From assembly GCA_964388905.1 (NCBI GenBank), contig CAYMDG010000001.1:7686-71685 (forward strand): DNA of 64,000 nt, in the 5' to 3' direction. Position 1 is the stretch's first letter. Each line of letters starts with the position of its first letter. The notes under the pieces are model-generated. The model made no database searches. It had not been told where the DNA came from and worked only from the letters and a program-made list of their open reading frames with translations. The DNA is from an uncultured Bacteriovoracaceae bacterium. GTDB lineage: Bacteria > Desulfobacterota > Desulfomonilia > UBA1062. Made by a program: the position numbers and the translations under genes. Shown piece by piece: positions 1 to 20,822 of the stretch.

Positions 1-684
1 ACCATCGATGTCGGGTATGATCCGAGTTATGTCACCTATAACGGCGCCACCTTTGTGCGGATCGGGCTCGGATCTCTCCAGGTCAGCCTGGACGCGCTGA
101 GCTTGAGGGTAGGCCTCGGCCCCGACACATCCCTTGCACAAGAGGTCGGAACGCTGAACCTCGGTCCCATGGCAGCGTACTTCAACCCTGCGAGCTATAT
201 TGATCTTTACAACCCGAGGATCGGGGTTACGAGCGCCGTGTATGTGACCATGAATGTCATTGTGGACCAGTTCGATCTGAGCTACCTGTCCTGGGGCGAC
301 AGCGACGGCCTGCCCGGCGGAAATACCGGGACCGGGGGCGTGGTGTGGATGGCCCCTGGCACCCTTTCGACAGCAGGCTACCTGGGTCTCCAGAACCTCA
401 CAATCGGCGGGCCCGTAACATTGACCGGGACCGTGAGCTTCGATGTCACCACAAGCAGAGGAGGCGTCTATGCCTCTGCAGGCGGAGGCCAGGTTACCGT
501 GTTCCACATTATTTTCCAGCGGCTGACCACCCTGAACTTCCATGGGCCCATCACGGCAAATGTACGGCTTGACAGCGTTGCGGCACTGAACAGCGCCAAC
601 GCCGGCACATTGGGGAATATCTACCTCTCGGGTGTCAACCTGGATGTGCGTGCCGGGAGCTGGATAGATATCTGGGCACATTAA
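1..684 (+). CDS. Secreted beta-rich repeat protein, 5'-truncated by the window edge. It is a paralog of 29414..30418.
   Basis: The reading frame is open from base 1 (TIDVGYDPSYVTYNGATFVRIGLG aligns to ITIDVGSSNAAGRTFVRFGLG of the 29414 gene). It shares WGD.DGLPGGNTGTGGVVWMA and the terminal GSWIDIWAH-stop with that paralog. The sequence is rich in G/T/N/S. Confidence 0.6.
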   Translation, partial: TIDVGYDPSYVTYNGATFVRIGLGSLQVSLDALSLRVGLGPDTSLAQEVGTLNLGPMAAYFNPASYIDLYNPRIGVTSAVYVTMNVIVDQFDLSYLSWGDSDGLPGGNTGTGGVVWMAPGTLSTAGYLGLQNLTIGGPVTLTGTVSFDVTTSRGGVYASAGGGQVTVFHIIFQRLTTLNFHGPITANVRLDSVAALNSANAGTLGNIYLSGVNLDVRAGSWIDIWAH

Positions 685-789
685 TTGCATTTGTATAATT
701 GATATAACAAATGGAAAAAGCTGGATATTGGGTGGCGGATGTTCTATATACAACTGAATAGGCAGTGAACTGAAAAGGTAGAGAACCGC

Positions 790-1677
790 ATGAAGAGATT
801 AGAGCAGATTCCTTTCATCGCGATAATCATATTGGCCGTCACAACACTTTCGCCCGGCATCCTTGCAGCCCAGATGAGCGTTGTCAGCGATGATGAGCTG
901 TCCTCTGTCTGCGCCCAGGCGGGCATCAATGCCAATTATGGTGATTTCGGGGTAAATATCACCACCGATTCCATTCGATTTTCCGACACCGACAACGGCA
1001 ACTGGATTGAAATGAATAACTTCTCCATCTCCGGCCCGGGGGGATATTTCAAGCTGGACTGCCCGGAAGATTCCCCCATGAGCATCGATGTGGGGACAAA
1101 GACCACCACCGACAACCTGACGAGGACCTTTATCGGTTACCAGCTGTCGGACCATATAAACACGCGAACCTGGTCAATCGGCAACTTTGTTTTCGCCAAC
1201 CAGGATCTTGGGAGTATCGTGTTTGATACCTCAACGGTGATCCCTGCCCATTTCGGCGTGTCAGCCCCCTTGGGGGCCGGTACCAGCGGAATAGAATTCG
1301 AATATCTCACCAGCTGGCTTACCCAGGATTTTACCTATGCCTACAACACAGCAGGAGGCGCCTTGAATTTACAGGGTATTCACCTTGCCCAGAGCGCTGC
1401 CGGTGCGCCTGAAAGCGACCCGTCCACGTGGGTGTTCAGCGGCCAGTTCCGGGTCGGCGATATACTCGGCGGGAATATCCATGCTGAACCGAGCCCTGCT
1501 ACCATGGATGTTGCCACAGAAATTTCAACTTCAACAACATCGTTATATGTCAACCTGCCCATGAAGGGCACGCTCAGGGTAGTGGATGTAGTACTCGGGG
1601 GAAATGATTTCGGCCCTGTTGCCATTGACGGCATCACGGTTCACCATCTCGGTTTGAGATTTAACCCGGGAAACTGA
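790..1677 (+). CDS. Secreted beta-rich protein, a distant member of the same family (signal peptide, then N-terminal D.ELS.V motif).
   Basis: ATG start with upstream AAGG. N-terminal hydrophobic signal (IPFIAIIILAVTTLSPGILAA). The mature N-terminus SVVSDDELSSVCAQAG resembles MTPVTDSDLSNVTGQSG of the paralogs. G/T/N-rich. It lies immediately upstream of the C39 peptidase gene. Confidence 0.5.
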   Translation: MKRLEQIPFIAIIILAVTTLSPGILAAQMSVVSDDELSSVCAQAGINANYGDFGVNITTDSIRFSDTDNGNWIEMNNFSISGPGGYFKLDCPEDSPMSIDVGTKTTTDNLTRTFIGYQLSDHINTRTWSIGNFVFANQDLGSIVFDTSTVIPAHFGVSAPLGAGTSGIEFEYLTSWLTQDFTYAYNTAGGALNLQGIHLAQSAAGAPESDPSTWVFSGQFRVGDILGGNIHAEPSPATMDVATEISTSTTSLYVNLPMKGTLRVVDVVLGGNDFGPVAIDGITVHHLGLRFNPGN

Positions 1678-1697
1678 GCCACTTCACTAATAACCCT

Positions 1698-2456
1698 ATG
1701 CCGATCATTGTCAGTTTCTTCATTCTCATGACATACATGGGGATCATGCACCCTCAGAGAGACATACCCAAGGGCGAGCTGAGAACAACACCTGGCATGG
1801 CAGGCATGCAGAATCTGACGCTCAGGAATAATGTCAAGCCGCTCAATGAAGGATTCACCTACAAGAATGTCGTAAAGCAGGAATTTGACTATAGTTGCGG
1901 ATCAGCGGCCCTGGCCACCCTCTTGAACTTTTACCTCGGTGAGAAATTAACCGAACAGCAGGTGATCCAGGGGCTCATGCAATACGGCGATGCGGACAAG
2001 ATACAGGAACGCAGGGCATTCTCCCTCCTGGACATGAAGCGTTTCGTTGAGGTGCTGGGGTATACGGGTGTCGGGTATAAGGCCGAACTTGATGACATCA
2101 GGTCTCTGAAAAAACCCGGGATTATCCCCATAGAATTGGCCGGTTACAAGCATTTTGTGGTATTCCGCGGAATTTACGGCAACCACATCTTTTTCGCAGA
2201 CCCGTTCAGGGGCAATACGAGCTTTACCCTTGAAACCTTCCGCGAAATCTGGAGCCAGAACATCGTATTCGTCATCTCAACGGAAAATGTTCACTTAAAG
2301 GCGCTCGCCTTGAAAGATGAAGACCTGCGCATCATTGACTTTGACATGACGCGGCATGCAATGACACAGACCCTCCCGCCCCAAATAGTGACGGATCAGC
2401 GTCAACTAACGGAATCCATAGGTGGAACGTATTATAAGACTGTAAATATAAAGTGA
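1698..2456 (+). CDS. Standalone papain-like C39-family cysteine peptidase (FapD-like architecture), probably periplasmic or membrane-anchored.
   Basis: Q-x5-C motif (VKQEFDYSCGSAALATLLNF) and a downstream catalytic His context (AGYKHFVVFRG). There is an N-terminal hydrophobic segment, and the size (~250 aa) is typical of Peptidase_C39-like domain proteins. Confidence 0.75.
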   Translation: MPIIVSFFILMTYMGIMHPQRDIPKGELRTTPGMAGMQNLTLRNNVKPLNEGFTYKNVVKQEFDYSCGSAALATLLNFYLGEKLTEQQVIQGLMQYGDADKIQERRAFSLLDMKRFVEVLGYTGVGYKAELDDIRSLKKPGIIPIELAGYKHFVVFRGIYGNHIFFADPFRGNTSFTLETFREIWSQNIVFVISTENVHLKALALKDEDLRIIDFDMTRHAMTQTLPPQIVTDQRQLTESIGGTYYKTVNIK

Positions 2457-2533
2457 CAATTGCACATGTTTTCATGTAAGGTTACATATATTGGCACTTA
2501 TTAACAATAGAGTATGCCGGGGGTAATTAAGCT

Positions 2534-3622
2534 GTGAAATTTTTTTGTATGGTTGGAATGGTTTTGTTGTTCTTGACCCTGTCGATCAGCACGCTGAATG
2601 CACAGGAGCAGGGAAATAAGGACAGTCAGGAATTGCTTGACAGGATAGAGACCCTGGAAAAGCAGCTGAAAAAACTTGAAGATGAAGGCAAGGCAAGGAA
2701 AAGCCTGGAGATAACGGAAGAAGAGAAAACTGACTCAGAGAAAGAAGTGCTCGAGGCCGTGGGCAGGGAATATTCCCTTTCACCGAAAGGCACTTTTTCC
2801 CTTGATTACAACCTGAGCTACGCCTATTCACCGGCCGAGACGTTCATCTCTCAATCACAAGCATCGCAATCGGCAACAACCCTGGAATTTCAGCGCCAGG
2901 CGGATCATACCATTACGCATTCCATATATACTTCGTACAGTATACTTGACAATCTCACCACAAGTGTGAACCTCCCCATCGTCTATCGGTACACAAAACA
3001 GGGCACCGACGATAGCCTTGACCAGTCGGATATCGGTGATATTTCCATAGGGCTTGCCGTGCAACCCCCGTCAGCCTGGTCCTGGCTTAAGCTTCCTCTC
3101 GGCATAAACGGCACGTACACTTTTGGTGGGGTGCTGCCAACGGGGCGCAGTCCGTTCAAGATCAACACCAAGACGGAGCTCTCCACAGGCAGCGGGTTAT
3201 ATCAGCTCTCGGCGGGTGGGAGTTTCAGCAAACAGATTGATCCGCTGGTATTCTTCTGGAGCCTTGGTTATTCCTATCCCTTCGACAAGAAAAATCTCAA
3301 CTACCGTGTACAGGATCAGATAACCCTGGATGAGGTGAAAACGGGTAGTTCGATTAACTTCGGTATGGGAATGGGGTATGCCATGTCCTATGCGAACTCC
3401 ATCAACATGTCTTTCAACTATTCATATCAGAAATCATCCAGCTACAAATATAATGAAGTAAAAAGCGTCCAGAAGAGTGGGGACCGCGTTTCAGCAACAT
3501 ATGGAATAGGCATGGGATTAATGGTGACACCGAAGACTGTTATCTCGGTATCGCTCGGATACAATCTCATAAGCGCCGGGTTCTCGCTGTCTGCACGGGT
3601 GCCATTTGATTTTGTTATGTGA
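2534..3622 (+). CDS. Outer-membrane beta-barrel protein with an N-terminal coiled coil (FapF-like organisation).
   Basis: Signal peptide (LFLTLSISTLNAQE), then a heptad-like charged segment (ELLDRIETLEKQLKKLEDEGKARKSLEITEEEK), then ~250 aa of alternating-hydrophobic beta strands rich in Y/S/G/N, and an aromatic C-terminus (VPFDFVM). Confidence 0.6.
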   Translation: MKFFCMVGMVLLFLTLSISTLNAQEQGNKDSQELLDRIETLEKQLKKLEDEGKARKSLEITEEEKTDSEKEVLEAVGREYSLSPKGTFSLDYNLSYAYSPAETFISQSQASQSATTLEFQRQADHTITHSIYTSYSILDNLTTSVNLPIVYRYTKQGTDDSLDQSDIGDISIGLAVQPPSAWSWLKLPLGINGTYTFGGVLPTGRSPFKINTKTELSTGSGLYQLSAGGSFSKQIDPLVFFWSLGYSYPFDKKNLNYRVQDQITLDEVKTGSSINFGMGMGYAMSYANSINMSFNYSYQKSSSYKYNEVKSVQKSGDRVSATYGIGMGLMVTPKTVISVSLGYNLISAGFSLSARVPFDFVM

Positions 3623-3634
3623 GGAGCTTATCGG

Positions 3635-5314
3635 ATGAAGAGGTTCAGTGTTATCTTCTTAATCTTAACGGTAGCGATTCCGGGGATCCCATCACTGCTA
3701 TCTGCTGCCCTGTATGAACAGCTTGTCACAAGCCCCCTTGCATCCTCCATGGGAAGTGCTGTTACGGCCTATCCGCCGGGGGCCATGGCCATACATTATA
3801 ACCCGGCAGGCCTTGCGACCATCCCTGGCACCCGTTTTGATAATGGCATCGGTTATGTTAACACCTTCAGGGAAGTTTCCTATCACCAGGCCATTGACCC
3901 AACAACGGGTAAACCCTGGGCACCCTTCGGCGGGTGGTTCAACCACGGGATAGACCCGCTTGACGGAATGAAAGGCAGGCAGTCGAGCGGGTTTACAATC
4001 ATCCCCTATATCGATTTAGAAATACCTTACCTCATTACCCCGGGAATGGGGATTTCATACAAACCACCCGACCCGAAATACTCCCGGTGGACCTTCGGTT
4101 TTGGTCAGTTCGCAACCTTTGGTGCGGGTCTGAAAAACTCAAAGGGCAATCCGATCAGTTATCTGGGTCAGAAGGCCTTTTTCATAAGGATGAGCTTTAT
4201 CACCCCTGCTATTGCCTATCAGCTCACCGACACCGTATCCATCGGGGCGGCAGTGGGGCTGGGGCCATCGGTATTCATGCTCGAGACGAACATGAGGACG
4301 CCCAATGATATGGGTGCGCTGACCGGGGCGCTCGGAGAGTCAACAAGGGGCCTCGAAATTCCTGTAGTCTCTGAGCTCACGTTACCCCCACCCTGGTTCA
4401 ATGGCGGGATGACAGCGTATGCAACCCATGGCCATGTCAAGATGATGATGGAAGACTACCTCACCACGTCCTATAACCTGGGCATGCTCTGGCAACCCTA
4501 TGACTGGTTTGCCTTCGGCGCCTGTTATCAGAGTGAGTCCGAGGCAAACATGGAAGGCAACTTCAAATTCACCTACGGATCTGAATTCCGCAGAACAGTT
4601 GACTGGTTCGGCAGATCACCCATGACCATTATTACCTCAGCGATCTTTGACCTGCCCAACAAATCAGTGCCTTTCCAGAAAGGGACAGCCACCATGGACT
4701 TGACATGGCCGGCCCGTGTCCAGCTTGGCGTCAAGCTGCGCCCTGTCAAGCAGCTGACAATGACCTGTGATGCGAACTGGACGGATTGGGCTGTGCAGAA
4801 GGCGTGGGTGTTTCAGTTCGACCAGAAGATCCAGCTCTTACGGTTTGCCCGTATGCTCGGATATAGGTATTCCCCTGATACGCAGGTTATTGTGCACAAT
4901 TTCAAGAACACCTGGCATATGACCTATGGGTTGGAGATCAGACCTGTTAACAAGTTTTATCTGCGCTTGGGGTATGATGCAAGGCCTACTTCTGTTCATA
5001 ACAATCTCTTCGGGCCGTTGCCTTTCCCGGACCTCAAGATTTACTCGGCTGGCATAGGGCTTGTGGTGGATGACAAGCCCAAGCCTTCACCAAAAAATTT
5101 CAAAGAGCTGCAAACGCAGATAGAGCACCCGAATGAAGTGAATATCGTTGTGTCCTATATAAAACTAAACGACAAGACAGTGAAGAGCAATTCAAGCGTA
5201 AACTACAATTCCACGGTATTCACCAATATCGTTTATAACCCTTACGCAGGGCTTGACGTGCACCAGGAGATGCACTTGTGGTGGTTTGCCATCAACCAGA
5301 TATTTAAATGGTAG
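3635..5314 (+). CDS. FadL/TodX-family outer-membrane channel (hydrophobic-compound transporter family).
   Basis: Signal peptide, and an N-terminal hatch-like motif with NPAGLA (GSAVTAYPPGAMAIHYNPAGLATIPG) characteristic of the FadL/Toluene_X family. Long beta-rich body ending in an aromatic residue (..IFKW). Confidence 0.7.
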   Translation: MKRFSVIFLILTVAIPGIPSLLSAALYEQLVTSPLASSMGSAVTAYPPGAMAIHYNPAGLATIPGTRFDNGIGYVNTFREVSYHQAIDPTTGKPWAPFGGWFNHGIDPLDGMKGRQSSGFTIIPYIDLEIPYLITPGMGISYKPPDPKYSRWTFGFGQFATFGAGLKNSKGNPISYLGQKAFFIRMSFITPAIAYQLTDTVSIGAAVGLGPSVFMLETNMRTPNDMGALTGALGESTRGLEIPVVSELTLPPPWFNGGMTAYATHGHVKMMMEDYLTTSYNLGMLWQPYDWFAFGACYQSESEANMEGNFKFTYGSEFRRTVDWFGRSPMTIITSAIFDLPNKSVPFQKGTATMDLTWPARVQLGVKLRPVKQLTMTCDANWTDWAVQKAWVFQFDQKIQLLRFARMLGYRYSPDTQVIVHNFKNTWHMTYGLEIRPVNKFYLRLGYDARPTSVHNNLFGPLPFPDLKIYSAGIGLVVDDKPKPSPKNFKELQTQIEHPNEVNIVVSYIKLNDKTVKSNSSVNYNSTVFTNIVYNPYAGLDVHQEMHLWWFAINQIFKW

Positions 5315-5510
5315 ATTCTTTCGATAGAACGAGGGTATGACAGGTCTTGTGGTATGATAAGAAGTGATTCATAAGCATATCCGTGCCGATATCAAAAGTG
5401 CAAAAGACATCAGTAAGCCGGGTTGTTGCATTCCTCAGTAAAAGTTTGTATATCTCACATCGGTTTCAATGAAGATCATTATAGAATCAATAAAAAGGAG
5501 AGAATCAGGA

Positions 5511-7019
5511 ATGAAAAGACATGTGTGTTATCTGACGTTGGTTCTCGTTGTTTGCACCCTTATGTCAAGCTCGGTTGTATGTGCAGAGAACAAGACACTC
5601 AAAGAAAAGATAGACATCATAGCCGAACCATCAAAGGACTGGGATATATACCTGGAGTCTGCCACACCAAGCCCTGACTCCAATCATGTGACTACCGTTG
5701 CGCGCAACAAGGCCGGTAAGTTTTGCGTTGTGTACGATGGAAAACCCCTTAAGGAATACAGTTCAATCGGCAAGGGCACCCCGGTCTTCAGCCCTGATTC
5801 GAAGCATTTTGTCTATAAGGCAAAAAAGGGCAATAAATGGCTGATGGTCTTGGACTCCAATGAGCAGAAGGCTTACGACAATGTGGGCAACCCGGTTTTC
5901 AGCCCTGACTCGAAAAGACTTGCCTATATAGCTGAAAAAGGCGGGAAATATACGGTTGTCCTGGACGGGAAAGAGATCGGTGAATATGATCTTGTCCCTT
6001 CGAAATACAACCTGATCTTCAGCGGCGACTCAAAACGCTTTGTTTTTCTCGCGCTGAAAGGCAAGAAAGGACTCATGGTTGTCGACGGTGTGGACGGGAA
6101 GATCTATGACCAGGTATCATATGCCGTCTTCAGCCCGGACTCGAAACACCTCATTTATCCGGCAACGAATAATAAGAAAATGTTTGTAGTATACGATGGA
6201 AAGGAATTGACTGCTTATGAAAAGGTCGGGGCATTTGCCTTCAGCCCCGACTCATCGCGGTTCGCCTATACCGCCAAACTCAACGACAAGGCGTTACTGG
6301 TCTCGGACGGGAAGGAAAGCCCGCGATACTCCGATATCGCCATGCCCATGTACAGCCCTGATTCAAAGACCATAGGCTATTTCGCCATAGATGGTAAGAA
6401 GACCTATATGGTCATGAACGGCAACAAGGGGAATTCCTATGACGAGGTCAGGGAGTTGCTTTTCAGCCCTGACTCTTCACGCTATACCATATCCTATCGT
6501 GATGGCAGCGACTGGTTCGCCCTCGATGAAAAGGGGAAGATAAGCGCCAAATATGACAATGTCTTCATGCCGGTCTACAGTCCGGACTCGAAGCATGTGG
6601 CCTACATGGCGCAGAAAGGGAAAAACTGGTTTATAGTACGTGATGGAAAAGAAGGTCCAAAATATGATTTTATCACCCTAGCCCAGTTCAGCAAGGACTC
6701 GAGCCGCATGGTCTATATGGCGAAGAAAGGGGAAAAGTGGCTGGTGGTCATGGATGGTAATGAATCGAAAATCTATGATGGCGTTGCCCTTCCCAAGTTC
6801 AGTGATGATTCGCGTCACTATTCATACATTGCATTAAAAGACAGTTTATGGTTCGCTGTGGTCGATGAGATTGAAAGCAAAAATAAGTTTCTCGGTTTTC
6901 TCAAGGGATCGGATGTATCATTTGATACAAATACCAGCACGCATGTCCTTGGGCTTCACGTGCCCACGGGATCAACATTACCAAACATCGTAAAATTGAA
7001 GATCGATATTGCAAACTGA
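5511..7019 (+). CDS. Secreted protein built from ~11 tandem ~40-aa WG/PD40-like beta-propeller-type repeats.
   Basis: AAGGAG RBS at 5495..5500, ATG at 5511. Signal peptide (LVLVVCTLMSSSVVCA). Recurring unit G.KW.VV.DGKE...YD.V....FSPDSK.LAY.A.K. The upstream in-frame extension in the ORF track lacks an RBS. Confidence 0.65.
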   Translation: MKRHVCYLTLVLVVCTLMSSSVVCAENKTLKEKIDIIAEPSKDWDIYLESATPSPDSNHVTTVARNKAGKFCVVYDGKPLKEYSSIGKGTPVFSPDSKHFVYKAKKGNKWLMVLDSNEQKAYDNVGNPVFSPDSKRLAYIAEKGGKYTVVLDGKEIGEYDLVPSKYNLIFSGDSKRFVFLALKGKKGLMVVDGVDGKIYDQVSYAVFSPDSKHLIYPATNNKKMFVVYDGKELTAYEKVGAFAFSPDSSRFAYTAKLNDKALLVSDGKESPRYSDIAMPMYSPDSKTIGYFAIDGKKTYMVMNGNKGNSYDEVRELLFSPDSSRYTISYRDGSDWFALDEKGKISAKYDNVFMPVYSPDSKHVAYMAQKGKNWFIVRDGKEGPKYDFITLAQFSKDSSRMVYMAKKGEKWLVVMDGNESKIYDGVALPKFSDDSRHYSYIALKDSLWFAVVDEIESKNKFLGFLKGSDVSFDTNTSTHVLGLHVPTGSTLPNIVKLKIDIAN

Positions 7020-7124: not shown

Positions 7125-9374
7125 TTACGGGTGGTCCTGCATAAGCTTCTTGTAAAAGTCGGTCCCCCGTATGTTTTCAAGGTCCGGATCGTTTCTGAGC
7201 ACGGACCACTTGCTGAAACCCTTTCCGATAGCAGCCTGAAGGCTGCCCACCGCTTCATCCACCTTGTTCTGCCTGGCCTTTATGCAGGCTATGTTGTAAT
7301 ACGCATCAGGGTCATCAGGGTGTGCGGATGTCATCCTGTCGAGGTAGACCAGGGCCTTTTCATAGTCTCCTTTGCTCGAATTGAGGACTGCAAGGGCGTA
7401 CACGGCCTGCAGATCTTCCGGGTTTTTCCCCAGTGCAGCCTCTGCTGAGCGTATCTTTTTCTCGATGAGGTCCTTCTTTTGGGTTACAGCAATGAGGCCG
7501 GCAAGGGCTTCTCGAAAATCAGGCTGTACCTTGAGAATCTCGGAATATTCCCTGGCGGCAGCATCAAGCCTGTTGGACGCCGCATATGCGAATGCAAGCT
7601 TGTTCCTGACCTGAAAATTGCCGGGAATCAGAGCCAGGACATTGCGGTAATACCGGGCGGCCTGGTCGGCATCACCCATACTCATCAGGAGGTTCGCCAG
7701 GCTGTAATGGTAATCTGCCGAGCCGGGATTCAGGGCAAGGGCCGCCTTGTATTCATGCATCGAGTCTTTGAATTTCATCTGTGCCGCGAGGACAGAGGCA
7801 AGTCTTTCGTGGATCATGGGATCTTGTGGACTCAACTTCAGGGCTTCCCGGTAAAACGTTTCCGCTTCCTGGTTTCTGCCGAGCTTGTTGAGGGTATTGC
7901 CCATGCCGGTCTGTGAGGACACGTACTGCGGTCTAACCTGTATTGCCTTGGAGAAATACGACAGGGCCTTGTCATAATCGCCATTATAAAAGTAGGCGTT
8001 GCCCAGGGTGTCGTAAGAGATGAAGTTGGCCGGGTCAACATCGATCCCGTGCTCGAAGAAGGTGTAGTCATTCTTCCAGTAAGGCAGCTGAAGCGATATT
8101 TTCACCAGAAAGCCGCTGAGCACAATTGCGGTTGCGACAAGCACGCCAATCTTCAGAGCGGACCGGTTCGATACAAGATCGGCAAGGGACCAGGTGATGG
8201 CGATGAAGAGCCCGATATAGGGCACATAGGCCCAACGCTCGGCTATTGCCGGCCAGAGACCGCCTTGCATGAGTCCTGAAACAGGGACAAGGGTGCCCAG
8301 GAACCAGATCCAGCCCATGATGAGGTAAGGAGCTCTTGTCAGGAAGGCAAGGCAGACAATGGTGATGAGAAAGATGAGCAGCAGAGACCCGGTCACCTGC
8401 CATGCAGGCACAAAAACGGGGTAGGGGTAGAAAAAAGTTAAGTTTACGGGCCAGATCATTTTCCCGAGGTAGAGCGCATAGGAGACAATGGCCTGGGAAA
8501 TTCGCAGGCCCATGGGGACCTCGCCCGTAGAAATGACGAGCCCCACCGACTTGATGGATAATGACGAGAAATAGATGGCAGCAAGAGCGCCGGCGAGCAG
8601 GGGCAGCTTTTCAAGGATGACCATTGCATATGCGGATATGCCCGTTGCTCCCGGGAAATTTTTTTTATATTTCTCCGCCTGGTTCTCGCTCATGGGGAAT
8701 CCGATGCGTTTCAAAGGCCAGAAGTCCATGAGCAGGAGAACAAAGGGCAGGGTTACCAGCATGGGCTTTGCAAGGAGCCCGAGAACAAAGGTTGCTGCAA
8801 CCAGGATATATCTGCCGATGGTACTGCGTTCGGTGTAAAGGATATAGGTGTACATGGTCAGCATCCAGAAGGTGGTGCTGAGGATATTCTTTCTTTCTGC
8901 AACCCAGGCAACCGTATCTACATTTACCGGGTGGAATGCGAACAGTGCCGCAACGATGGCGCTTTTCCACACTGCGCCGGTTGCCTTTCTCAGGACAAGG
9001 AAGATCAGGAGGGCATTTATTGCATGGAAAAAGACGTTCATCAGGTGGTGCAGCCCTGCGTTCATATCGAAGAGCTGAGAGTCTATCATATGCGATATCA
9101 ATGACAGGGGGTGCCAGTAGATCTTTTCAACAGGCTTCGAGATCTGGAATGCCCAGGCGACGTTTTCAGCATTCAAACCGCTCTTCACGTGGGGATTGCC
9201 AAAGACATAGTGGTCATCGTCGAAGTGGAGAAACTCATGCCCGCCCACCGGCCAATAGACCGCAAAGGTGGTTATGAACAGGAAGAGGCATATAAGGAAG
9301 GCCTTATTTCCATCGATCATCTGTTTGAGTCCGTTCATATCAGTCATTTTTTTCATGATAACCCTATATATCAC
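7125..9374 (-). CDS. TMTC/PMT-like GT-C membrane glycosyltransferase with a C-terminal TPR array and the conserved terminal cap.
   Basis: Multi-TM N-terminal half with a first-loop acidic motif (LHFDDDHY) and the hallmark ALFAFHPVNVDTVAWVAERKN motif. C-terminal TPR repeats end in YYNIACIKARQ..EAV.SL..AIGKGF..W.VLRNDPDLENIR. Confidence 0.8.
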   Translation of the reverse strand: MIYRVIMKKMTDMNGLKQMIDGNKAFLICLFLFITTFAVYWPVGGHEFLHFDDDHYVFGNPHVKSGLNAENVAWAFQISKPVEKIYWHPLSLISHMIDSQLFDMNAGLHHLMNVFFHAINALLIFLVLRKATGAVWKSAIVAALFAFHPVNVDTVAWVAERKNILSTTFWMLTMYTYILYTERSTIGRYILVAATFVLGLLAKPMLVTLPFVLLLMDFWPLKRIGFPMSENQAEKYKKNFPGATGISAYAMVILEKLPLLAGALAAIYFSSLSIKSVGLVISTGEVPMGLRISQAIVSYALYLGKMIWPVNLTFFYPYPVFVPAWQVTGSLLLIFLITIVCLAFLTRAPYLIMGWIWFLGTLVPVSGLMQGGLWPAIAERWAYVPYIGLFIAITWSLADLVSNRSALKIGVLVATAIVLSGFLVKISLQLPYWKNDYTFFEHGIDVDPANFISYDTLGNAYFYNGDYDKALSYFSKAIQVRPQYVSSQTGMGNTLNKLGRNQEAETFYREALKLSPQDPMIHERLASVLAAQMKFKDSMHEYKAALALNPGSADYHYSLANLLMSMGDADQAARYYRNVLALIPGNFQVRNKLAFAYAASNRLDAAAREYSEILKVQPDFREALAGLIAVTQKKDLIEKKIRSAEAALGKNPEDLQAVYALAVLNSSKGDYEKALVYLDRMTSAHPDDPDAYYNIACIKARQNKVDEAVGSLQAAIGKGFSKWSVLRNDPDLENIRGTDFYKKLMQDHP

Positions 9375-9473: not shown

Positions 9474-10811
9474 ATGGGTAAAAAATGCCTGATTATCTCA
9501 GTAACAGCCTTTCTCTTATTTTATGCCGTGACAGTCCGGGCTCAGGACAGCCTCGCACAAAGAATAAGTACTGAAAAACCCCTCGCAGGCGTGGATACAA
9601 CCTTTTGGATTGAATCATCTTTTCAGGTGAGCCCTGATGTAAGACATACGGCATATATCGCAAAGGCAGGGGATATGCGTTACATGGTCGTGGACGGAGT
9701 AAAGGGGAAGCAGTACGATGGCGTCGCAACAGGCCGGCATGTGTTCAGCCCTGACAGCAAGCGGGTGGCATATATGGCAGTTACCGGTGAAAAGCAATGT
9801 GTAGTTGTAGATGGAAAAGAGGAGAAGCGCTACGATGGCATCTCTGTAACAGGCCCGGTATTCAGCCCTGACAATAAGCACGTGGCATACACTGCCCGGA
9901 CGGGCACAAACTGGTTTGTGGTTCACGACGGCAAGGAGGGCAAACCCTATAACGGCATCATGGATGGAACCCCCGTGTTCAGCCAGGACAGCTTGCATGT
10001 GGCATATGCAGCTGAAGTGGACTCTTTGTTTGGAGGAAAGAAATGGCTGGTGGTTGTGGATGGGAAAGAGGGAAAGCCCTACAAGGGCATTGCTGCAAGC
10101 GGCCCGGTCTTCAGCCCTGACAGCGGGAAAGTTGCATATGCAGCTCTTGCAGGGAAGAAATGGCTGATGGTGGAAGATGGTGTTGAAGGAAAGCTCTACG
10201 ATGACATCAAGGCCGGATCATACGTTTTCAGCGCAGACAGCCGGCACCTGGCATATGTGGTAAAGGTGAACGAAAGATATTCGGATAAATACCGGGTTGT
10301 GCTGGATGGGAAAGAACTGAAACTCTATGACAGCATCGGTAAGGGCACCCTGGTTTTCAGCCCTGACAGCGCTCGGTTGGCCTATGTTGCGAGCACGGGA
10401 GACAAATATTTTGTCGTTGCGGATGGGACAGAGGATGAGAAGAAGTTCCAGATCATCGGCGCTGGCAGCCTGACGATAAGTGATGACGGCAGGCACATGG
10501 CGTATGAAGTGCGGGTAGACAAAAAGTTCTCCGTAGTGCTCGATGGCAAAATGGGGAAGCTGTACGACGGTATCACCCTGAATTCACTGGTATTCAGTCC
10601 TGGCAGCGCACACCTGGCGTATGTAGCTCAAACAGAAAACAAAGAGGTTGTGGTGGTCGATGGGGTAGAGGGCAAGTCCTATGACGCGCTTGTCACTACG
10701 GGAGGGGGAAGGATTGTGTTTGATGGCCCGCATGCCTTTCATTACATTGTACGGAAAAATAAAACCCAGTTCTCTCTCATTGAAGAGAGTATCCAGGGCG
10801 GAAAGGATTAG
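9474..10811 (+). CDS. Secreted WG/PD40-like repeat protein, a paralog of 5511..7019.
   Basis: Signal peptide (LIISVTAFLLFYAVTVRAQD). ~10 tandem repeats of VFSPDSK.VAY.A..G.K...VVDGKEGK.YDGI. Confidence 0.65.
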   Translation: MGKKCLIISVTAFLLFYAVTVRAQDSLAQRISTEKPLAGVDTTFWIESSFQVSPDVRHTAYIAKAGDMRYMVVDGVKGKQYDGVATGRHVFSPDSKRVAYMAVTGEKQCVVVDGKEEKRYDGISVTGPVFSPDNKHVAYTARTGTNWFVVHDGKEGKPYNGIMDGTPVFSQDSLHVAYAAEVDSLFGGKKWLVVVDGKEGKPYKGIAASGPVFSPDSGKVAYAALAGKKWLMVEDGVEGKLYDDIKAGSYVFSADSRHLAYVVKVNERYSDKYRVVLDGKELKLYDSIGKGTLVFSPDSARLAYVASTGDKYFVVADGTEDEKKFQIIGAGSLTISDDGRHMAYEVRVDKKFSVVLDGKMGKLYDGITLNSLVFSPGSAHLAYVAQTENKEVVVVDGVEGKSYDALVTTGGGRIVFDGPHAFHYIVRKNKTQFSLIEESIQGGKD

Positions 10812-11894: not shown

Positions 11895-12659
11895 TCAAGG
11901 ATTAAAGGCCATCTTGAGCTCCTCGCTGTCCGGGTAGCTGATCAGAACGGCTCGGTGAGGGCCATGAAAAACGAACATGCTGCCGGCCCCGGCTGCGGAT
12001 GCACCGCCTTCCTTTACCGATGCTTCCAAATCTTTTACACTTCCAGCCCCCCCGGAAGCTATAACGGGAATATTTACGATGCTCGTAATGCGTCTGATGA
12101 GATCGATGTCATAGCCTTTCATGGTTCCGTCGCGGTCGATTGAGTTGATGACCAGCTCACCTGCACCCATCTTTTCCATGTTTCTTGCAAAGACCGCGGG
12201 ATCGAATCCGGTTGATTTTCTGCCGCTGTGGGTGAACACCTCATACTTACCCCACAGATTTTTCTTCACATCTATTGAGACGACCACACTCTGGGAACCC
12301 ACAAGCTGTGATACCTCGGCGACGAAGGCGGGGTTCTCCACCGCAAGTGTGTTGATCACGACCTTTTCCACGCCAAGACCAAGGATAATCCTGACCTGGT
12401 CAAGATTCCTGATCCCACCGCCGTAGCCGAAGGGCATGAAGGCTTCGGTAGCAATCTTTTCGAGCAATATATATGGCGGCTCTTTGCCATCTATGGTTGC
12501 AGTAATGTCGAGGAAGACAATCTCGTCCACTTCCTTTTCATTGAAGATCTTGACAATATTGATAGGATCGCCGAGGTATTTCGGGTCTTTGAACTTAACG
12601 GTCTTGACAAGGCCCTGGTTTTTCAGAAGCAGGAAGGGTATGGCCCGGGGCATGAACAT
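11895..12659 (-). CDS. hisF: Imidazole glycerol phosphate synthase cyclase-subunit paralog (HisF/WbuZ-like) of glycan clusters.
   Basis: Clear HisF-family similarity (GGGIRNLDQVRIILGLGVEKVVINTLAVENPAFV...IPVIASGGAGS). It is paired with a HisH-like gene and lies near a WbuX-like amidotransferase. Confidence 0.85.
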   Translation of the reverse strand: MFMPRAIPFLLLKNQGLVKTVKFKDPKYLGDPINIVKIFNEKEVDEIVFLDITATIDGKEPPYILLEKIATEAFMPFGYGGGIRNLDQVRIILGLGVEKVVINTLAVENPAFVAEVSQLVGSQSVVVSIDVKKNLWGKYEVFTHSGRKSTGFDPAVFARNMEKMGAGELVINSIDRDGTMKGYDIDLIRRITSIVNIPVIASGGAGSVKDLEASVKEGGASAAGAGSMFVFHGPHRAVLISYPDSEELKMAFNP

Positions 12660-13370: not shown

Positions 13371-14840
13371 TTATAGGAAACGCTGTCTGATCGTGGCGGC
13401 ATAGTGCTTCAGGAAAAGGACATCATCGGGTTCAAGGCAATAACGATATATAGCTGAAAGAAGGGACACAAGTATGAATGTGCCCGCAGCATACCTGTTC
13501 ATGAAAAATGAGCTTATGGCAAATATTGCAATGGCAAGGGCTGCGAGGACGGTGATATGCAGATACCATCTCAAATCTATCCGGAAATTTATGAAACGGG
13601 GCATCAAACTTGTGAACAAAAGAGTTCCGAACACCATAGAGAATGTGGTTGACAGTGCGGCCCCAGTAATCCCCATCAACGGGATCAGGATTAACATCAC
13701 GACGATGCTGGCAATCGACGCTAAGAGATCAAGGAGGAAAGCGATATTAGGCCTGCCTATGCCTGCGTAGAGACCTCCGATGGGTGCGTTGATACTGCCC
13801 CTAATTACCCTTCCTATGAGCAGAATGTACAGCGGAAGGATGGAGGGGATGAACTTATCGCCAAACAGGAGTGTAACCATGGGGATCGCGAAAAAACCGA
13901 TTGCCAGTCCCAAGGGAATATTAATCATGGTTGAGTACTTCATGCTCTTGTCCAGCATAATGTGGAACTGCTTGGCATCTGGTTTTGCGAAGAGCTCCGA
14001 GGTGGCGGGGTAGGTAATCCTCTGGATTGCAGCGGGGATAAGGTTGAGGATCAGGCTCAAGGTAATGGCCACACTGTAGAAGCCAACATCGGTTTTGGTG
14101 AGAAAAAAACCAATAAGGATAATATCGATATTCGTAGCAACGACATTCATGACATCACTGCCAAAGAGGAGGCTTCCATATCTCAGCAGGATGCAGCCCT
14201 TCTCCTTGATACCGGCGATGTCAAATCTGAATAACTGTTTTGCAGATGCGAGCGATATCAGGCTTGAACATACCATGCTGAAAACGAGCCCATAGATGGC
14301 TCCATTGAGGCCAAACCCCATACCTACGAGCACAATGGTGAACAGGATCATAGAGAGGCTCTGCAGCATGATCAGAGATGAGAAACGCCTCATCTTTCTC
14401 AATCCGTTCACAAGGGCGGCGGATGACTGGAAGATCGATGTAAAAGGGAAGATGATGGAAAGGATCTTGAGGAGACCTGCAAGCTCCGGCATATGGAAAA
14501 TCCTGGAAAATACTCCGGAGAGGATATACATTACAACACTTACAACAAGCCCAAAGAACATGGAACTCAGGATGCCGGTGGTTATATACTGGTTGAGATT
14601 TTTGTGATCGTCTAGATATTCGGCAGAAAACTTGATGATGGATGAGGGGATGCCGAAAGTAGCAGCCATAGCTGTCATGGAATAAATAGTAATGACCATC
14701 TGATAAAGGCCGAGATCCGATGCCCCGAGCCAGCGGGCGAGAAAGATCCTGAGGATGAAGCTTATGGGTATGGTGATAATTGAGCTGGCAAAGGCCCAGC
14801 TGACATCAATGGCGAATTTCCTAGCCTTAGGAGTAGTCAT
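13371..14840 (-). CDS. Wzx-like polysaccharide/oligosaccharide flippase (MOP superfamily).
   Basis: ~490 aa with 12-14 predicted TM helices. N-terminal pattern typical of the Polysacc_synt family (AIDVSWAFASSIITIPISFILRIFLARWLGASDLGLYQMV). Confidence 0.75.
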   Translation of the reverse strand: MTTPKARKFAIDVSWAFASSIITIPISFILRIFLARWLGASDLGLYQMVITIYSMTAMAATFGIPSSIIKFSAEYLDDHKNLNQYITTGILSSMFFGLVVSVVMYILSGVFSRIFHMPELAGLLKILSIIFPFTSIFQSSAALVNGLRKMRRFSSLIMLQSLSMILFTIVLVGMGFGLNGAIYGLVFSMVCSSLISLASAKQLFRFDIAGIKEKGCILLRYGSLLFGSDVMNVVATNIDIILIGFFLTKTDVGFYSVAITLSLILNLIPAAIQRITYPATSELFAKPDAKQFHIMLDKSMKYSTMINIPLGLAIGFFAIPMVTLLFGDKFIPSILPLYILLIGRVIRGSINAPIGGLYAGIGRPNIAFLLDLLASIASIVVMLILIPLMGITGAALSTTFSMVFGTLLFTSLMPRFINFRIDLRWYLHITVLAALAIAIFAISSFFMNRYAAGTFILVSLLSAIYRYCLEPDDVLFLKHYAATIRQRFL

Positions 14841-14903: not shown

Positions 14904-15995
14904 TCAGGACTCAAAGATCTTTTTCCATAACTCTATGGATTTCTCTTCAGAGAACTCTCTTTTAATAATTTCCCTGTTTCTTTTACTGACTAAAGGATCG
15001 AATGCAAACAAGTCTTCCTGATTGTTGTTCAATAAGTCGACGGTGTCAAAGACCTTAACGCCCATTTTATCAAACAGATTGTAACTTACCGTACTTCTTC
15101 TGACATAGACCTTTTTCCCAAGATAGAGCAAAGCGATTATATTGCCCAATGCTTCTTGTCTAGGATGATTCATGATGGCAACGTCCACGGTCTTTAGTAA
15201 ATCAGCGTAGGCCTCAGGTTTCAGCAATTCAAATATCGGTATGAATCTCTCACCCAACACCATTTTCCCATACTCGGACACTTTAGCTGCATATTCCTGG
15301 TTGCCGTAAGACAATGGACATATTACCTTGAATGAATTATTTGACGTTTTTAACCAATCCAGAACTTCATGGTGTTGATTTGAAGATGAGGCAGCATGTC
15401 CCAGCAAGATAGTCTTTACGGGTGCATTGCCGCGTGATGCAGCTAGAGAATCCAGCATAGCGGTGTTCACGACGTTTGGATAGAATGCATAATGATATGT
15501 TGCTTTTGTGCGATACCATTTTTTTGCGAGTTCATAATCGTCTTTTACGAGACAAATTATATTGGGCATCATCCTTAGATGAAGTGATCGATATGCCTTG
15601 AAGAGATTGAATAACACATATGGCTTGATATTGAGATTGTGAAAATATAGGTCATGGCCCCAAATAACCCAGTATGTTCGCCTTTTAAAAAATGGAATGA
15701 GAGTCAGGATGGGATTGATGATGTTTATTACTTTTACGCCATGAATGAAAACCTTGTCAGCGATCCAGAGCGCTTGTATTAACCTGATATAATTTTGAAA
15801 TAAATTATGAGATCTTCCTAATACGAACAGATTTTCTTTGTTTCGGACTGCTGTGCTTAGATTCCTGCCGCTGCAAGTAAAACAATAAAGGTGCTTGAAA
15901 GTGTCTGAAAGCTCTTCATCCAACAGGGTTACATATTTTTCTGCAAAGAGCATATCATCACCAAGAATATGTAATAAAACCAATTTATTCTGCAT
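14904..15995 (-). CDS. wecF: WecF/RffT-like GT56 4-alpha-L-fucosyltransferase family (TDP-Fuc4NAc:lipid-linked acceptor transferase-like).
   Basis: Aligns to E. coli WecF landmarks: KLVLLHILGDD (MTVLIHVLGSD), YWVIWGHDLY (FWHIWGADLY), KTILLGHAASSSNQHHEVL (MTILVGNSGDRSNEHIAAL). Similar length (~360 aa). Confidence 0.7.
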   Translation of the reverse strand: MQNKLVLLHILGDDMLFAEKYVTLLDEELSDTFKHLYCFTCSGRNLSTAVRNKENLFVLGRSHNLFQNYIRLIQALWIADKVFIHGVKVINIINPILTLIPFFKRRTYWVIWGHDLYFHNLNIKPYVLFNLFKAYRSLHLRMMPNIICLVKDDYELAKKWYRTKATYHYAFYPNVVNTAMLDSLAASRGNAPVKTILLGHAASSSNQHHEVLDWLKTSNNSFKVICPLSYGNQEYAAKVSEYGKMVLGERFIPIFELLKPEAYADLLKTVDVAIMNHPRQEALGNIIALLYLGKKVYVRRSTVSYNLFDKMGVKVFDTVDLLNNNQEDLFAFDPLVSKRNREIIKREFSEEKSIELWKKIFES

Positions 15996-18452: not shown

Positions 18453-20822
18453 TCAGGTCCAGTCTCTTCTTGATGATCTTAATAAAGGTTCCCGCTTCAA
18501 ACAGGTATTCATGACAATGTCCATACCCCTTAATGAGGTTAAAACAGGTTTCTCCTTGCCCTTAAAGTGGTCATGTTCAAGGGGCAAGGTATATTCGCCA
18601 CCATCTTGTGCAACTTTACCCTCATGGCTCCTCAACAGCTCGACTACATAGGCTGTGCTCCTGACATTCGCAAGATCAGGATCTTTTCTGATGAGGTCCC
18701 ACCGGTTGAAGCCTTTCTCGATTGCCTGTTTGAGCCAGGCCACGGATTCGTCCGCCCTGTTCTGTATTGCAGACAGGCATGCGAGGTTGTAGTAAATCTC
18801 TGGGTTGGCGGGCTGAAGCTGCTTCATCCTGATCAAGGTATCTGCTGCCCGGGAATATTCCTTCATATCAGAGTAAACGAGCACGAGTCCGTAAAAAGCT
18901 TTGATGGAGTCTTTCTGGAAAGAAATGGCCTTGTTGTACTGCGATATGGCATTCTCATAGTCTCCCTGCTCCCGGTAGATATCGCCCAGTCTCGTAAGCA
19001 TGATCGGGTTTCCGGGTTCTTTCTGGAGTGCGCTCTGAAGAGCGAGAATAAGTTGATCGAATTTCTGTTTTGTGATTTGAGCTTTTTCAAGGGCGCTTCT
19101 TGCTTCGCGAGAATCAGGCCTTTCATTTAAGGCCTGCCTGTAGGATTCAACTGCCCTGGCGACATTGCCTTTCTGGAGATATGCGTTACCGAGGTTGAAG
19201 TACATATTAGCCTGATGAGGATCAATCTGTAATCCTTCCAGGTAGGTTTTGATGGCTTCATTATAATATCCCATTTCCGCCATGATCATCCCAAGCCTGT
19301 TGTGGACGTTCTCTTTCCGGGGATTGACCTTTATACATTCACGATACTTCTCAGCCGCTTCGACTAGGTTGCCCTGTTCTGCCAGGACCCTGCCGAGACA
19401 GTAATAAGAGTTGTCGTAATAGGGGTTGATTCGGATCGCCTTGTGGTATTCTCTGATGGCCCCCTGGGTATCTCCATTGTAATAGAATGAATTTCCGAGA
19501 TTGCTGTGAGCAATTGCGAGCCCGATGTTGTTGAACGCCCCGTTCTTTCCGTCTATCACGGAAACGACGTGCGTAAAGAGGGTTGTACTGTCCTTCCAGT
19601 AACCGACCTGTGTCCACGCGAGGGCAGCAAAAAAAATCGTCACTCCCGTGCCAGCTATGGCAAGTGCCGGGGTTGAATGCCTCCATCGTCTCAAGATGTC
19701 AGGAATACCCCAGGCAAGGGCGATGAATATGCCAATAAAGGTGAGATAACCATACCGATCGGCCATCTCGGGCCATACACCTGACATGAAAATGCCTAGG
19801 AAAGGTGCGAGTCCGCTCAGGAACCACAGCCAGCCAACGATAAAATACGGATAACGGGCAGCAAGCCTCAGGGCAAGTACTGTAAGCACTGTCAATACCA
19901 GCAGCGCGCCTGATGTCTCCCACAAGGGGATCATTGCGGGGTATGGATAGAGTATAGACAGGTTATGAGGCCAGAACAGCATACCCAGGTATTTCACGCT
20001 TGAGACGATGGCGTTGGATATGCGCAGGCCCAGGGATATTGTCTCTGCGCCATAGAGACCCATGCGGCTTTGTGCCCCTACCATGTTGCTCAGAAAGGAC
20101 AGGAAAGCAAGGATCAGAAAGGGGGCCTTCTCAAGCATGACCCGGGAGAGTTGGGCGGTACCGGACGACTTAAGCATCTGCACGTAGCTTCCCTGCGTAT
20201 CCAAATGCATCCTTTTAAGCGGCCAGAGGTCGATGAGCAGCAGTAAGAAAGGCAGCGTCATGAGCGATGGCTTTGCGAGCAGGCCAAGCCAGAACAGAAG
20301 CAGCGCTGTCATGTACCTTTTCCATGTGGGCTGTTCTGTATAGAAGGTGTAAGCCAGAAGGGTGAGCATGAAGAAGAGGCCGCTCAGGACATTATTCAGC
20401 TCTGCAATCCAGGCGACCGACTCTACGTTGGCCGGGTGAAGGGCGAACAGGGCACTCACGAAGGCGCTCTTCCAGAATCCGCCTGTAATCCTGAAGAGCA
20501 GAATAAAGAGCAGAATGCTGTTTAATGCATGGAGTATGAGGTTCAGGACATGGAATGCACCAGGATTCAGCCCGAACAGGGCATGGCAGGCCGTATAACC
20601 GAACCAGGTGAGGGGGGAGCACCAGGACGCCGGACTGAAGGACCATATGAAGTTGCTCCAGGTGAGGCCTGTCAGGACATGTGTCTGCTCGGTCAGCTGC
20701 AGCGGGTCATCAATGTTGACAAAGTCGAAGCCTGCCGCACGGTAGTAGACGAGGATAATAAAGATGACGAGGGAAAGACAGAAAATACTATTTTTGTATT
20801 TCAATAAATGTTTGTTTAACAT
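18453..20822 (-). CDS. TMTC/PMT-like GT-C membrane glycosyltransferase with C-terminal TPR. It carries an unusual ~55-aa extension after the cap.
   Basis: FVNIDDPLQLTEQTHV loop motif, ALFALHPANVESVAWIAELNN, a TPR array, and the cap YYNLACLSAIQNRADESVAWLKQAIEKGF..W.LIRKDPDLANVR. ~70% identical to the 59200..61410 paralog in the N-terminal region. Confidence 0.8.
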   Translation of the reverse strand: MLNKHLLKYKNSIFCLSLVIFIILVYYRAAGFDFVNIDDPLQLTEQTHVLTGLTWSNFIWSFSPASWCSPLTWFGYTACHALFGLNPGAFHVLNLILHALNSILLFILLFRITGGFWKSAFVSALFALHPANVESVAWIAELNNVLSGLFFMLTLLAYTFYTEQPTWKRYMTALLLFWLGLLAKPSLMTLPFLLLLIDLWPLKRMHLDTQGSYVQMLKSSGTAQLSRVMLEKAPFLILAFLSFLSNMVGAQSRMGLYGAETISLGLRISNAIVSSVKYLGMLFWPHNLSILYPYPAMIPLWETSGALLVLTVLTVLALRLAARYPYFIVGWLWFLSGLAPFLGIFMSGVWPEMADRYGYLTFIGIFIALAWGIPDILRRWRHSTPALAIAGTGVTIFFAALAWTQVGYWKDSTTLFTHVVSVIDGKNGAFNNIGLAIAHSNLGNSFYYNGDTQGAIREYHKAIRINPYYDNSYYCLGRVLAEQGNLVEAAEKYRECIKVNPRKENVHNRLGMIMAEMGYYNEAIKTYLEGLQIDPHQANMYFNLGNAYLQKGNVARAVESYRQALNERPDSREARSALEKAQITKQKFDQLILALQSALQKEPGNPIMLTRLGDIYREQGDYENAISQYNKAISFQKDSIKAFYGLVLVYSDMKEYSRAADTLIRMKQLQPANPEIYYNLACLSAIQNRADESVAWLKQAIEKGFNRWDLIRKDPDLANVRSTAYVVELLRSHEGKVAQDGGEYTLPLEHDHFKGKEKPVLTSLRGMDIVMNTCLKREPLLRSSRRDWT

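Follow-up and report, generated by a model that had tools for sequence, protein, structure and literature searches.

The first 5,314 nucleotides of a 64,000-nucleotide stretch of DNA from an uncultured Bacteriovoracaceae bacterium (GTDB lineage Desulfobacterota, Desulfomonilia, UBA1062; contig CAYMDG010000001.1 of assembly GCA_964388905.1; the whole stretch is referred to as the window) harbor five genes, g1 to g5, all encoded in the same direction on the plus strand. According to the list of open reading frames (ORFs), the intergenic gaps g1-g2, g2-g3, g3-g4 and g4-g5 measure 105, 20, 77 and 12 nt, respectively, and the minus-strand ORFs beneath positions 1..5314 are short and nested. The proteins encoded in the window were scanned with Pfam and NCBIfam models. 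The five genes probably represent the distal part of a biogenesis locus for a cell-surface fibre (pilus) of the Fil type, which is related to the Fap system. The genes and the features located in them are as follows (aa, amino acids).

1..684, plus strand: g1, the 3' 227 codons of a gene for a putative class-A DUF6160 fibre subunit, the start of which lies outside the window
790..1677, plus strand: g2, class-B DUF6160 secreted subunit, 295 aa, C-terminus ...RFNPGN
790..870, plus strand: predicted Sec signal peptide of g2, aa 1-27, MKRLEQ followed by a hydrophobic core and ILAA
874..924, plus strand: leader-like motif of g2, aa 29-45, MSVVSDDELSSVCAQAG, the conserved core of DUF6160
1698..2456, plus strand: g3, stand-alone C39 cysteine peptidase of the FilB/FapD type, 252 aa, with an N-terminal hydrophobic anchor
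1896..1898, plus strand: predicted catalytic Cys67 codon of g3 in SCGSAAL, matching in the alignment the catalytic Cys of C39 domains with solved structure
1878..1880, 2151..2153 and 2199..2201, plus strand: supporting residues Q61, H152 and D168 of g3, assigned by conservation and by the C39 alignment
2534..3622, plus strand: g4, FapF/FilC-like putative outer-membrane transporter, 362 aa
2627..2704, plus strand: aa 32-57 of g4, modelled as a helix and predicted to form a periplasmic coiled coil
2717..2761, plus strand: aa 62-76 of g4, a second helix that immediately precedes the barrel in the modelled secondary structure
2792..3616, plus strand: beta-barrel domain of g4, aa 87-361
3635..5314, plus strand: g5, FilD-type putative outer-membrane barrel of the FadL/TodX family, 559 aa
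3800..3811, plus strand: NPAG hatch motif of g5, residues 56-59, N-terminal

The gene product of g3 was matched by the Pfam model Peptidase_C39 (1.2e-15, 57.9 bits, cutoff 22), a large family with 5469 clusters at E<=1e-3, and its N-terminus is formed by a hydrophobic stretch. Of the NCBIfam models, FilB gave the better match (3e-63) compared to FapD (6e-33). The protein can be aligned to solved C39 domains, namely the peptidase domains found in PCAT1 and further ABC transporters, and the catalytic Gln/Cys/His/Asp of the PCAT1-type domain (4RY2) align with residues Q61, C67, H152 and D168 of g3. These four residues are conserved in at least 97% of 77 homologues and in FilB, and the active site of g3 is, as judged from the alignments, intact. 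Different from PCAT1, g3 is free-standing and, by analogy with FapD, would be located on the periplasmic side. FapD itself resides in the periplasm, and the secretion of FapC depends on the catalytic Cys of FapD (PMC5557850).

For g4, the NCBIfam models FilC (1e-48) and FapF (3.4e-16) were found, and FapF was also retrieved in a comparison with PDB sequences (E 1e-8). The AlphaFold2 (AF2) model of g4 (predicted local distance difference test, pLDDT, 82; predicted template modelling score, pTM, 0.70) comprises the signal peptide, two helices and a barrel. When this model was compared to the PDB with Foldseek, the best 18 matches were all FapF chains (E ~1e-20, TM-score to target 0.77-0.86), followed by the COG4313 channel 4RL8 and then by autotransporter barrels. 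In the first helix, the segment ELLDRIETLEKQLKKLE shows a heptad a/d pattern of isoleucine and leucine, which is compatible with a trimer; by analogy, g4 presumably forms one. The second helix is situated in the model at the position of the FapF plug helix (PMC5557850) and might act as a plug as well. Residues L73, A75 and Y80 of g4 are conserved, as are P202-T-G204 and S217-T218-G219 (3137..3196), which correspond to the two PTG motifs described for FapF (PMC5557850).

The gene product of g5 belongs to the FadL/TodX family (Pfam Toluene_X, 4.4e-34, 118 bits, cutoff 29.7) and was matched best by the NCBIfam model FilD (9e-77). Weaker matches to PorV/PorQ (9e-8) and BamG were obtained, while no Fap model was matched; a PDB sequence search revealed no solved relative. 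PorV of the type IX secretion system (T9SS) is, like g5, a FadL-fold barrel encoded together with a protein-secretion pore. However, the PorV match of g5 lies below the cutoff and covers only the N-terminal ~50 residues, and neither T9SS components nor C-terminal T9SS sorting domains are encoded at the locus. A functional analogy to PorV is conceivable. Given the weak PorV/PorQ and BamG matches, g5 may be a protein-handling partner of the transporter; by analogy with its FadL and COG4313 relatives, and in view of the many hosts that degrade alkanes or fatty acids, it may instead be a true channel for hydrophobic substrates.

The arrangement of these genes was compared in 81 loci, of which 80 were derived from a scan of one genome per species and one was metagenomic. 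The genes g3, g4 and g5 are adjacent and co-directional in 75 of them; most of the other six end at a contig edge, and one contains fragmented genes. Since the three genes are kept together in this manner, the arrangement is far beyond chance. The gene g5 is always located directly downstream of g4, and g1- or g2-like genes are found within 10 kb in 53 of the 81 loci. The hosts comprise Desulfomonilia, Syntrophia/Smithella, Desulfobacterales, including the cultured Desulfoluna, Desulfatibacillum alkenivorans and Desulfosudis oleivorans, and the betaproteobacterial Noviherbaspirillum. A preliminary description of this DNA, made from the sequence alone, had proposed five co-directional and tightly spaced genes encoding, among others, a stand-alone C39 peptidase with an N-terminal anchor, an outer-membrane protein with an N-terminal coiled coil and a FadL/TodX-type barrel. 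All of this is borne out by the data given above, as is the proposed parallel to FapD and FapF. The outcomes named there as refuting did not occur: the fold of g4 is FapF-like and not that of an unrelated porin, and synteny is conserved in relatives.

The closest named system is the Fil operon of Acinetobacter. The Fil fimbriae of Acinetobacter sp. Tol 5 are built from FilA monomers (PMC3498257; PMC11784438); these fibres are long and curved and occur abundantly when the cells are grown on triacylglycerol (PMC3498257). The sixth ORF of the fil operon, filF, encodes an uncharacterised putative pilus assembly protein (PMC4751259), and FilF is a vaccine candidate; mechanistic work on Fil was not found in the literature searched. 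As reference, the locus of A. baumannii (L084, NZ_CP104448.1 1796528..1815148) was used, which shows the order filA-B-C-D-E-F and whose FilA, FilB, FilC, FilE and FilF exceed the NCBIfam cutoffs. The filD frame of this locus stops at 12131 and the rest is found in the ORF 12330..12635, which means that filD is disrupted in that strain. The corresponding record is filed in PLSDB as a 4.09-Mb "plasmid", a size which points to a chromosome.

Both loci share four core families, the order of which is identical: DUF6160 subunit(s), C39 peptidase, FapF-like barrel and FadL-family barrel. The amino acid sequence identity is 45% between g3 and FilB, 33% between g4 and FilC and 31% between g5 and FilD. 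FilA is, like g2, a member of DUF6160 (37.1 bits with the same Pfam model), and the N-terminus of g1 is 30% identical to that of FilA over the first 83 residues (E 6e-4). The N-terminal motif of FilA is shared with the subunits of the locus, and in both FilA and the class-A subunits the last residue is His, preceded by a small residue. Past the first ~60-80 residues, the subunit bodies are unrelated to FilA. Moreover, one FilA is opposed to at least three subunit classes in the locus family, which additionally gained a PD40 propeller (g6, at the position of FilE/FilF), an upstream lipoprotein and a 253-aa motif-bearing protein; the host here belongs to the Desulfobacterota. The NCBIfam Fil models (NF050077-NF050081 and NF033645) are narrow "exception" models with curated cutoffs. 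Because the scores lie below these cutoffs, g3, g4 and g5 are, on the basis of sequence comparison, to be regarded as homologues of FilB, FilC and FilD and not as equivalogs. Since the Fil models score better than the Fap models, the DUF6160 module is common with FilA and the gene order is equal, the locus is assigned as a divergent relative of the Fil operon, which is named but mechanistically unstudied; it is not the undescribed system suggested in the preliminary description.

The product of g2 is matched by Pfam DUF6160 with 39.1 bits (cutoff 27). The residues G, T, S, L and V are abundant in both g1 and g2 (G 10-14%, T ~10%), N being prominent in g1 only (5.4%), and the two proteins are alike only over the N-terminal ~58 residues (36% identity). 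The C-terminus of g1 reads ...GSWIDIWAH, and class-A orthologues ending in SWVDIWAH are present in many loci. The structure model of g2 (pLDDT 81, pTM 0.70) shows an antiparallel all-beta meander with only weak resemblance to membrane barrels and without a solved relative; according to this model, the fold is a confidently predicted beta meander and neither a solenoid nor a FapC-like repeat. The g2-type subunit family is small, with 351 representatives out of 1.84 billion. The preliminary description of the substrates was thus right in part. No enzyme family was matched in the family scans or the structure comparison, so that globular enzymes as substrates, named there as a refuting outcome, were not encountered, and no FapB or FapC model was matched, in agreement with their being unrelated to FapC. 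The G/T/N-rich composition was confirmed for G and T in both proteins and for N in g1 alone. The claimed beta-repeats were not recovered, as no internal repeats were found in g1 and g2 by self-BLAST, and the assumption of amyloid or solenoid substrates does not fit the folded meander modelled for g2. Two secreted substrates had been described, both of which are real; the number is an undercount, because a third gene is located upstream of the window.

This gene, g0, was found on an overlapping Logan contig (L001) at the window start, on which the full g1 is 350 aa long and is preceded by g0 as a further paralogue. The C-terminus of g0 (...SWVDIWAH) is the same as in the class of g1. Hence, at least three subunit genes are arranged in tandem and the locus is cut by the window start. 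The upstream architecture was drawn from L001 and from relatives at 54-62% identity; an 87%-identical JGI relative begins within the C39 gene. Directly after g0, a 15-bp GC-rich hairpin with a T run is located (L001 196..229; dG -33 kcal/mol, z -4.6), i.e. a strong terminator of the kind typical as attenuator after a major-subunit gene, as would be expected if g0 is such a gene. No comparable terminator was found between g1 and g2 or elsewhere in the part of the operon within the window. In the equivalent region upstream of the window, a relative (L003 5750..6511) encodes a 253-aa secreted protein without Pfam match, which is located directly upstream of the subunit genes in 40 loci and in which a longer linker precedes a variant form of the leader-like motif, MVELADADLSEVYAEGF. 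Still further upstream, a lipoprotein of 290 aa (L003 4617..5489) is encoded, which was found in eight loci. Both proteins are probably further components outside the window. In Desulfatibacillum and relatives (L060, L063 and L073), three to four small motif-bearing subunit genes (150-200 aa, ending in ...PH or ...AH) were observed. The size of the subunits thus varies widely around a constant N-terminal motif and a C-terminal His, and the small subunits replace the classes of 300-400 aa.

The constant element of all subunits follows directly behind the predicted Sec signal peptide. In the alignment of the g2 family, small residues immediately precede a conserved Met, and the signal cleavage site of g2 was placed there as the likely position; M29, L37, S38 and G45 vary hardly or not at all. 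The consensus of the subunits right behind the signal is M-x-x-V-S-D-x-x-L-S-x-V-x-G/A-Q-x-G. Class A carries M-T-P-V-S-D-x-x-L-S-x-V-T-G-Q-A-G-V after an A-x-A-type signal end and terminates in SWVDIWAH, while class B (g2) carries A-Q-M-x-E-V-S-E-x-x-L-S-x-V-x-A-Q-A-G-I after the signal end and terminates in ...PGN. In g1, the motif MTPVSDTDLSTVTGQSGV is preceded by WA; in FilA of A. baumannii, the C-terminus of which is ...SGH, AMA precedes MQSMDDAALSAATGQDGI. A total of 71 distinct motif-bearing ORFs from the loci was surveyed, with positions numbered from the G/A-Q pair. Position -15 is occupied by M or L in 65 and position -12 by L, V, M or I in 66 of these ORFs, neither position being fixed by the search pattern. 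The motif further comprises L at -7, V or I at -4, D or E at -8 and -10, G or A at -2 and Q or R at -1. The motif is common to subunit classes and phyla.

Double-glycine leaders follow the consensus LSxxELxxIxGG, the hydrophobic spacing of which matches that of the subunit motif. The sequence pattern therefore suggests that the motif is a candidate recognition or cleavage site of the putatively periplasmic C39 peptidase g3. Because of the same resemblance, cleavage of the subunit leader segment by the peptidase may be considered, even though the odds are judged to be slightly against it. While PCAT1-type leaders start the protein, the motif described here follows a Sec signal, and its position -1 is Q or R instead of G, A or S. 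A second candidate C39 site, located in the linker of g4 (EVLEAVGREY), was discarded, as it is out of register with the subunit motif.

Downstream of g5, two further genes are located which are related to the locus to a different extent.

5469..7019, plus strand: g6, secreted PD40 (TolB-like) beta-propeller repeat protein, conserved accessory gene
7125..9374, minus strand: g7, membrane protein with TPR repeats and a region resembling PMT_2 glycosyltransferases, possible associate of the locus

The gene product of g6 was matched by PD40 (1e-13) and is TolB-like, while no similarity to FilE or FilF was found. Orthologues are encoded beside the core genes in 39 of the 81 loci, mostly directly downstream of g5, and for this reason the operon is considered to reach at least to position 7019. 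A paralogue of g6 (9474..10811, plus strand) is located just past the convergent TPR gene g7; both are secreted PD40 (TolB-like) propellers with 42% identity and ~10 FSPDSK-type repeats. Relatives of g7 are found within 10 kb of the core genes in 18 of the 81 loci in varying orientation. The linkage of g7 to the fibre locus is weak, because its family is highly paralogous, with at least four copies in 30 kb of the window. These large TPR-repeat proteins are encoded at 7125..9374 (minus strand), 18453..20822 (minus strand), 22250..24823 (plus strand) and 24924..27104 (plus strand), and the PMT_2 (GT-C) match of the first one is weak. Near the fibre loci, relatives of the TPR family are sometimes encoded two to three times in tandem (L003, L004 and L032). 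The TPR/PMT_2 proteins might glycosylate the Ser/Thr-rich subunits, or they might merely be abundant paralogues. Further genes encode a Polysacc_synt polysaccharide flippase (13371..14840, minus strand) and a GT56-like glycosyltransferase (14904..15995, minus strand). Over its whole left third, the window has the appearance of a region for cell-surface biogenesis.

From these data, a pathway can be proposed in which the paralogous subunits g0, g1 and g2 and the upstream motif-bearing protein, each with the DUF6160 N-terminal module, would be exported via Sec. The membrane-anchored g3 would process a component of the system on the periplasmic side, most likely the leader-like segment of the subunits. 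The subunits would then cross the outer membrane via g4, a FapF-like pore with coiled coil and plug-like helix, presumably a plug-gated trimer. The barrel g5 may be the partner of g4, either in docking, anchoring or shuttling subunits, comparable to PorV, or in importing hydrophobic molecules. The PD40 propeller g6, presumably periplasmic, might be a lineage-specific accessory in place of FilE and FilF. In a more specific version, the locus would represent a distinct pilus pathway, in which a double-glycine-like propeptide of ~15 residues is kept after Sec export, and its removal by the C39 peptidase would license passage via the trimeric FapF-like pore paired with the FadL-fold barrel; this version is regarded as rather doubtful. 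Within it, the cut might in addition set off polymerisation, in that a groove becomes free for the conserved C-terminal strand of the next subunit (...SWVDIWAH), comparable to the action of Arg-gingipain on type V pili. A bolder variant assumes that curved-sheet subunits form a hydrophobic conduit feeding lipids or hydrocarbons to the FadL channel.

Several observations weigh against a Fil-type fibre locus with subunit processing. The scores with the Fil models are far below the narrow NCBIfam cutoffs, the FilA model being missed with 13 bits compared to 220, and FilE, FilF and Pfam FilE_C (PF22881) are unmatched in the genes of the window and in the related loci. The residues -2/-1 of the motif are G/A-Q (or G-R) and not the canonical G-G/A/S, and when the N-terminal peptides were compared to NCBIfam, no bacteriocin-type leader model was matched, but FilA only. 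The substrate of FapD is described as "yet to be determined", and suspicion currently falls on FapE or the linker of FapF (PMC5557850, PMC6173800) rather than on the main subunit. Barrels of the FadL family and those resembling COG4313 otherwise serve as channels for the uptake of hydrophobic compounds. Finally, the formation of fibres is extrapolated from Acinetobacter alone, and the modelled g2 monomer, a folded beta sheet, gives no direct sign of a mode of polymerisation.

A Fap-type amyloid system, in which disordered subunits are exported unfolded through the FapF-like pore to form extracellular cross-beta fibrils, shares much with the locus: a periplasmic-type C39 peptidase, a barrel with N-terminal coiled coil, pre-barrel helix and PTG motifs, and Sec-dependent substrates encoded upstream. 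The order substrate-substrate-C39-pore parallels fapBCD(E)F, the fold of g4 is that of FapF (structures 5O65, 5O67 and 5O68), and co-located fapD and fapF homologues have already been reported outside Fap, in five further phyla (PMC6173800). Nevertheless, such a system is very unlikely here. No FapA, FapB, FapC or FapE model was matched by the genes of the window (for g1, g2 and g6 not even at E<=0.1), the imperfect repeats are missing in the self-BLAST, g2 is predicted to be folded and neither disordered nor a solenoid, and each core protein scored higher with the Fil models. In addition, the true Fap-type loci of Cupriavidus (L085) and Polymorphobacter (L086) encode the C39 peptidase and the FapF-like protein without a FadL gene, which is always adjacent in the locus family, and without DUF6160 subunits. 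The Fap-type C39/FapF-like locus on the Polymorphobacter plasmid (L086 10745..14461) adjoins four PEPxxWA-CTERM sorting-domain proteins, which hints at a secretion module paired with a different class of cargo.

Alternatively, g5 and g4 could primarily constitute an uptake apparatus for hydrocarbons, lipids or aromatic compounds, the secreted proteins being surface binders or biosurfactant-like capture proteins and not pilus subunits. This would be in line with the Toluene_X match of g5 and with the relation of g4 to COG4313/Phenol_MetA_deg, seen in the PF13557 match of many g4 homologues and in 4RL8 as next best fold; COG4313 proteins take up hydrophobic molecules (PMC6173800). Hosts such as Desulfatibacillum alkenivorans, Desulfosudis oleivorans, Smithella and metagenome-assembled genomes from tar biofilms would fit as well, although the evidence linking the locus to hydrocarbon degraders is anecdotal, and the abundance of Fil fimbriae on triacylglycerol-grown Tol 5 cells (PMC3498257) can be read in the same way. 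However, the invariantly linked, intact C39 peptidase and the tandem Sec-exported, leader-bearing proteins would have no role in a simple diffusion channel, and g4 resembles FapF more than COG4313 (E 1e-20 compared to 1e-12) and possesses the coiled coil and the second helix in addition. Uptake as the primary function of the locus is therefore considered unlikely, but uptake and fibre formation could coexist. The classical role of C39 domains, also reflected in the JGI label "predicted double-glycine peptidase" on several homologues, would be the removal of double-glycine leaders from small toxins during bacteriocin or peptide export. This is extremely improbable for the locus: no ABC transporter is fused to or encoded beside the peptidase in any of the 81 loci, the candidate substrates are 150-450 aa large and carry Sec signals, no immunity genes were seen and no bacteriocin leader model was matched.

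Thus, a Fil-type fibre locus is the preferred explanation. The C39, FapF-like and FadL-like proteins form an ancient, strictly syntenic module across Desulfobacterota, Beta- and Gammaproteobacteria, which serves several unrelated subunit bodies, all of them provided with one short conserved motif behind the signal peptide. The constant machinery and the common motif make the question of the target of periplasmic C39 peptidases directly testable, and cleavage of a subunit propeptide, if true, would reveal the kind of substrate that has long been sought for FapD-type peptidases. For the organisms, the locus points to a probable surface-fibre system in anaerobic syntrophs and sulfate reducers that degrade hydrocarbons and fatty acids and for which adhesion to hydrophobic substrates matters.

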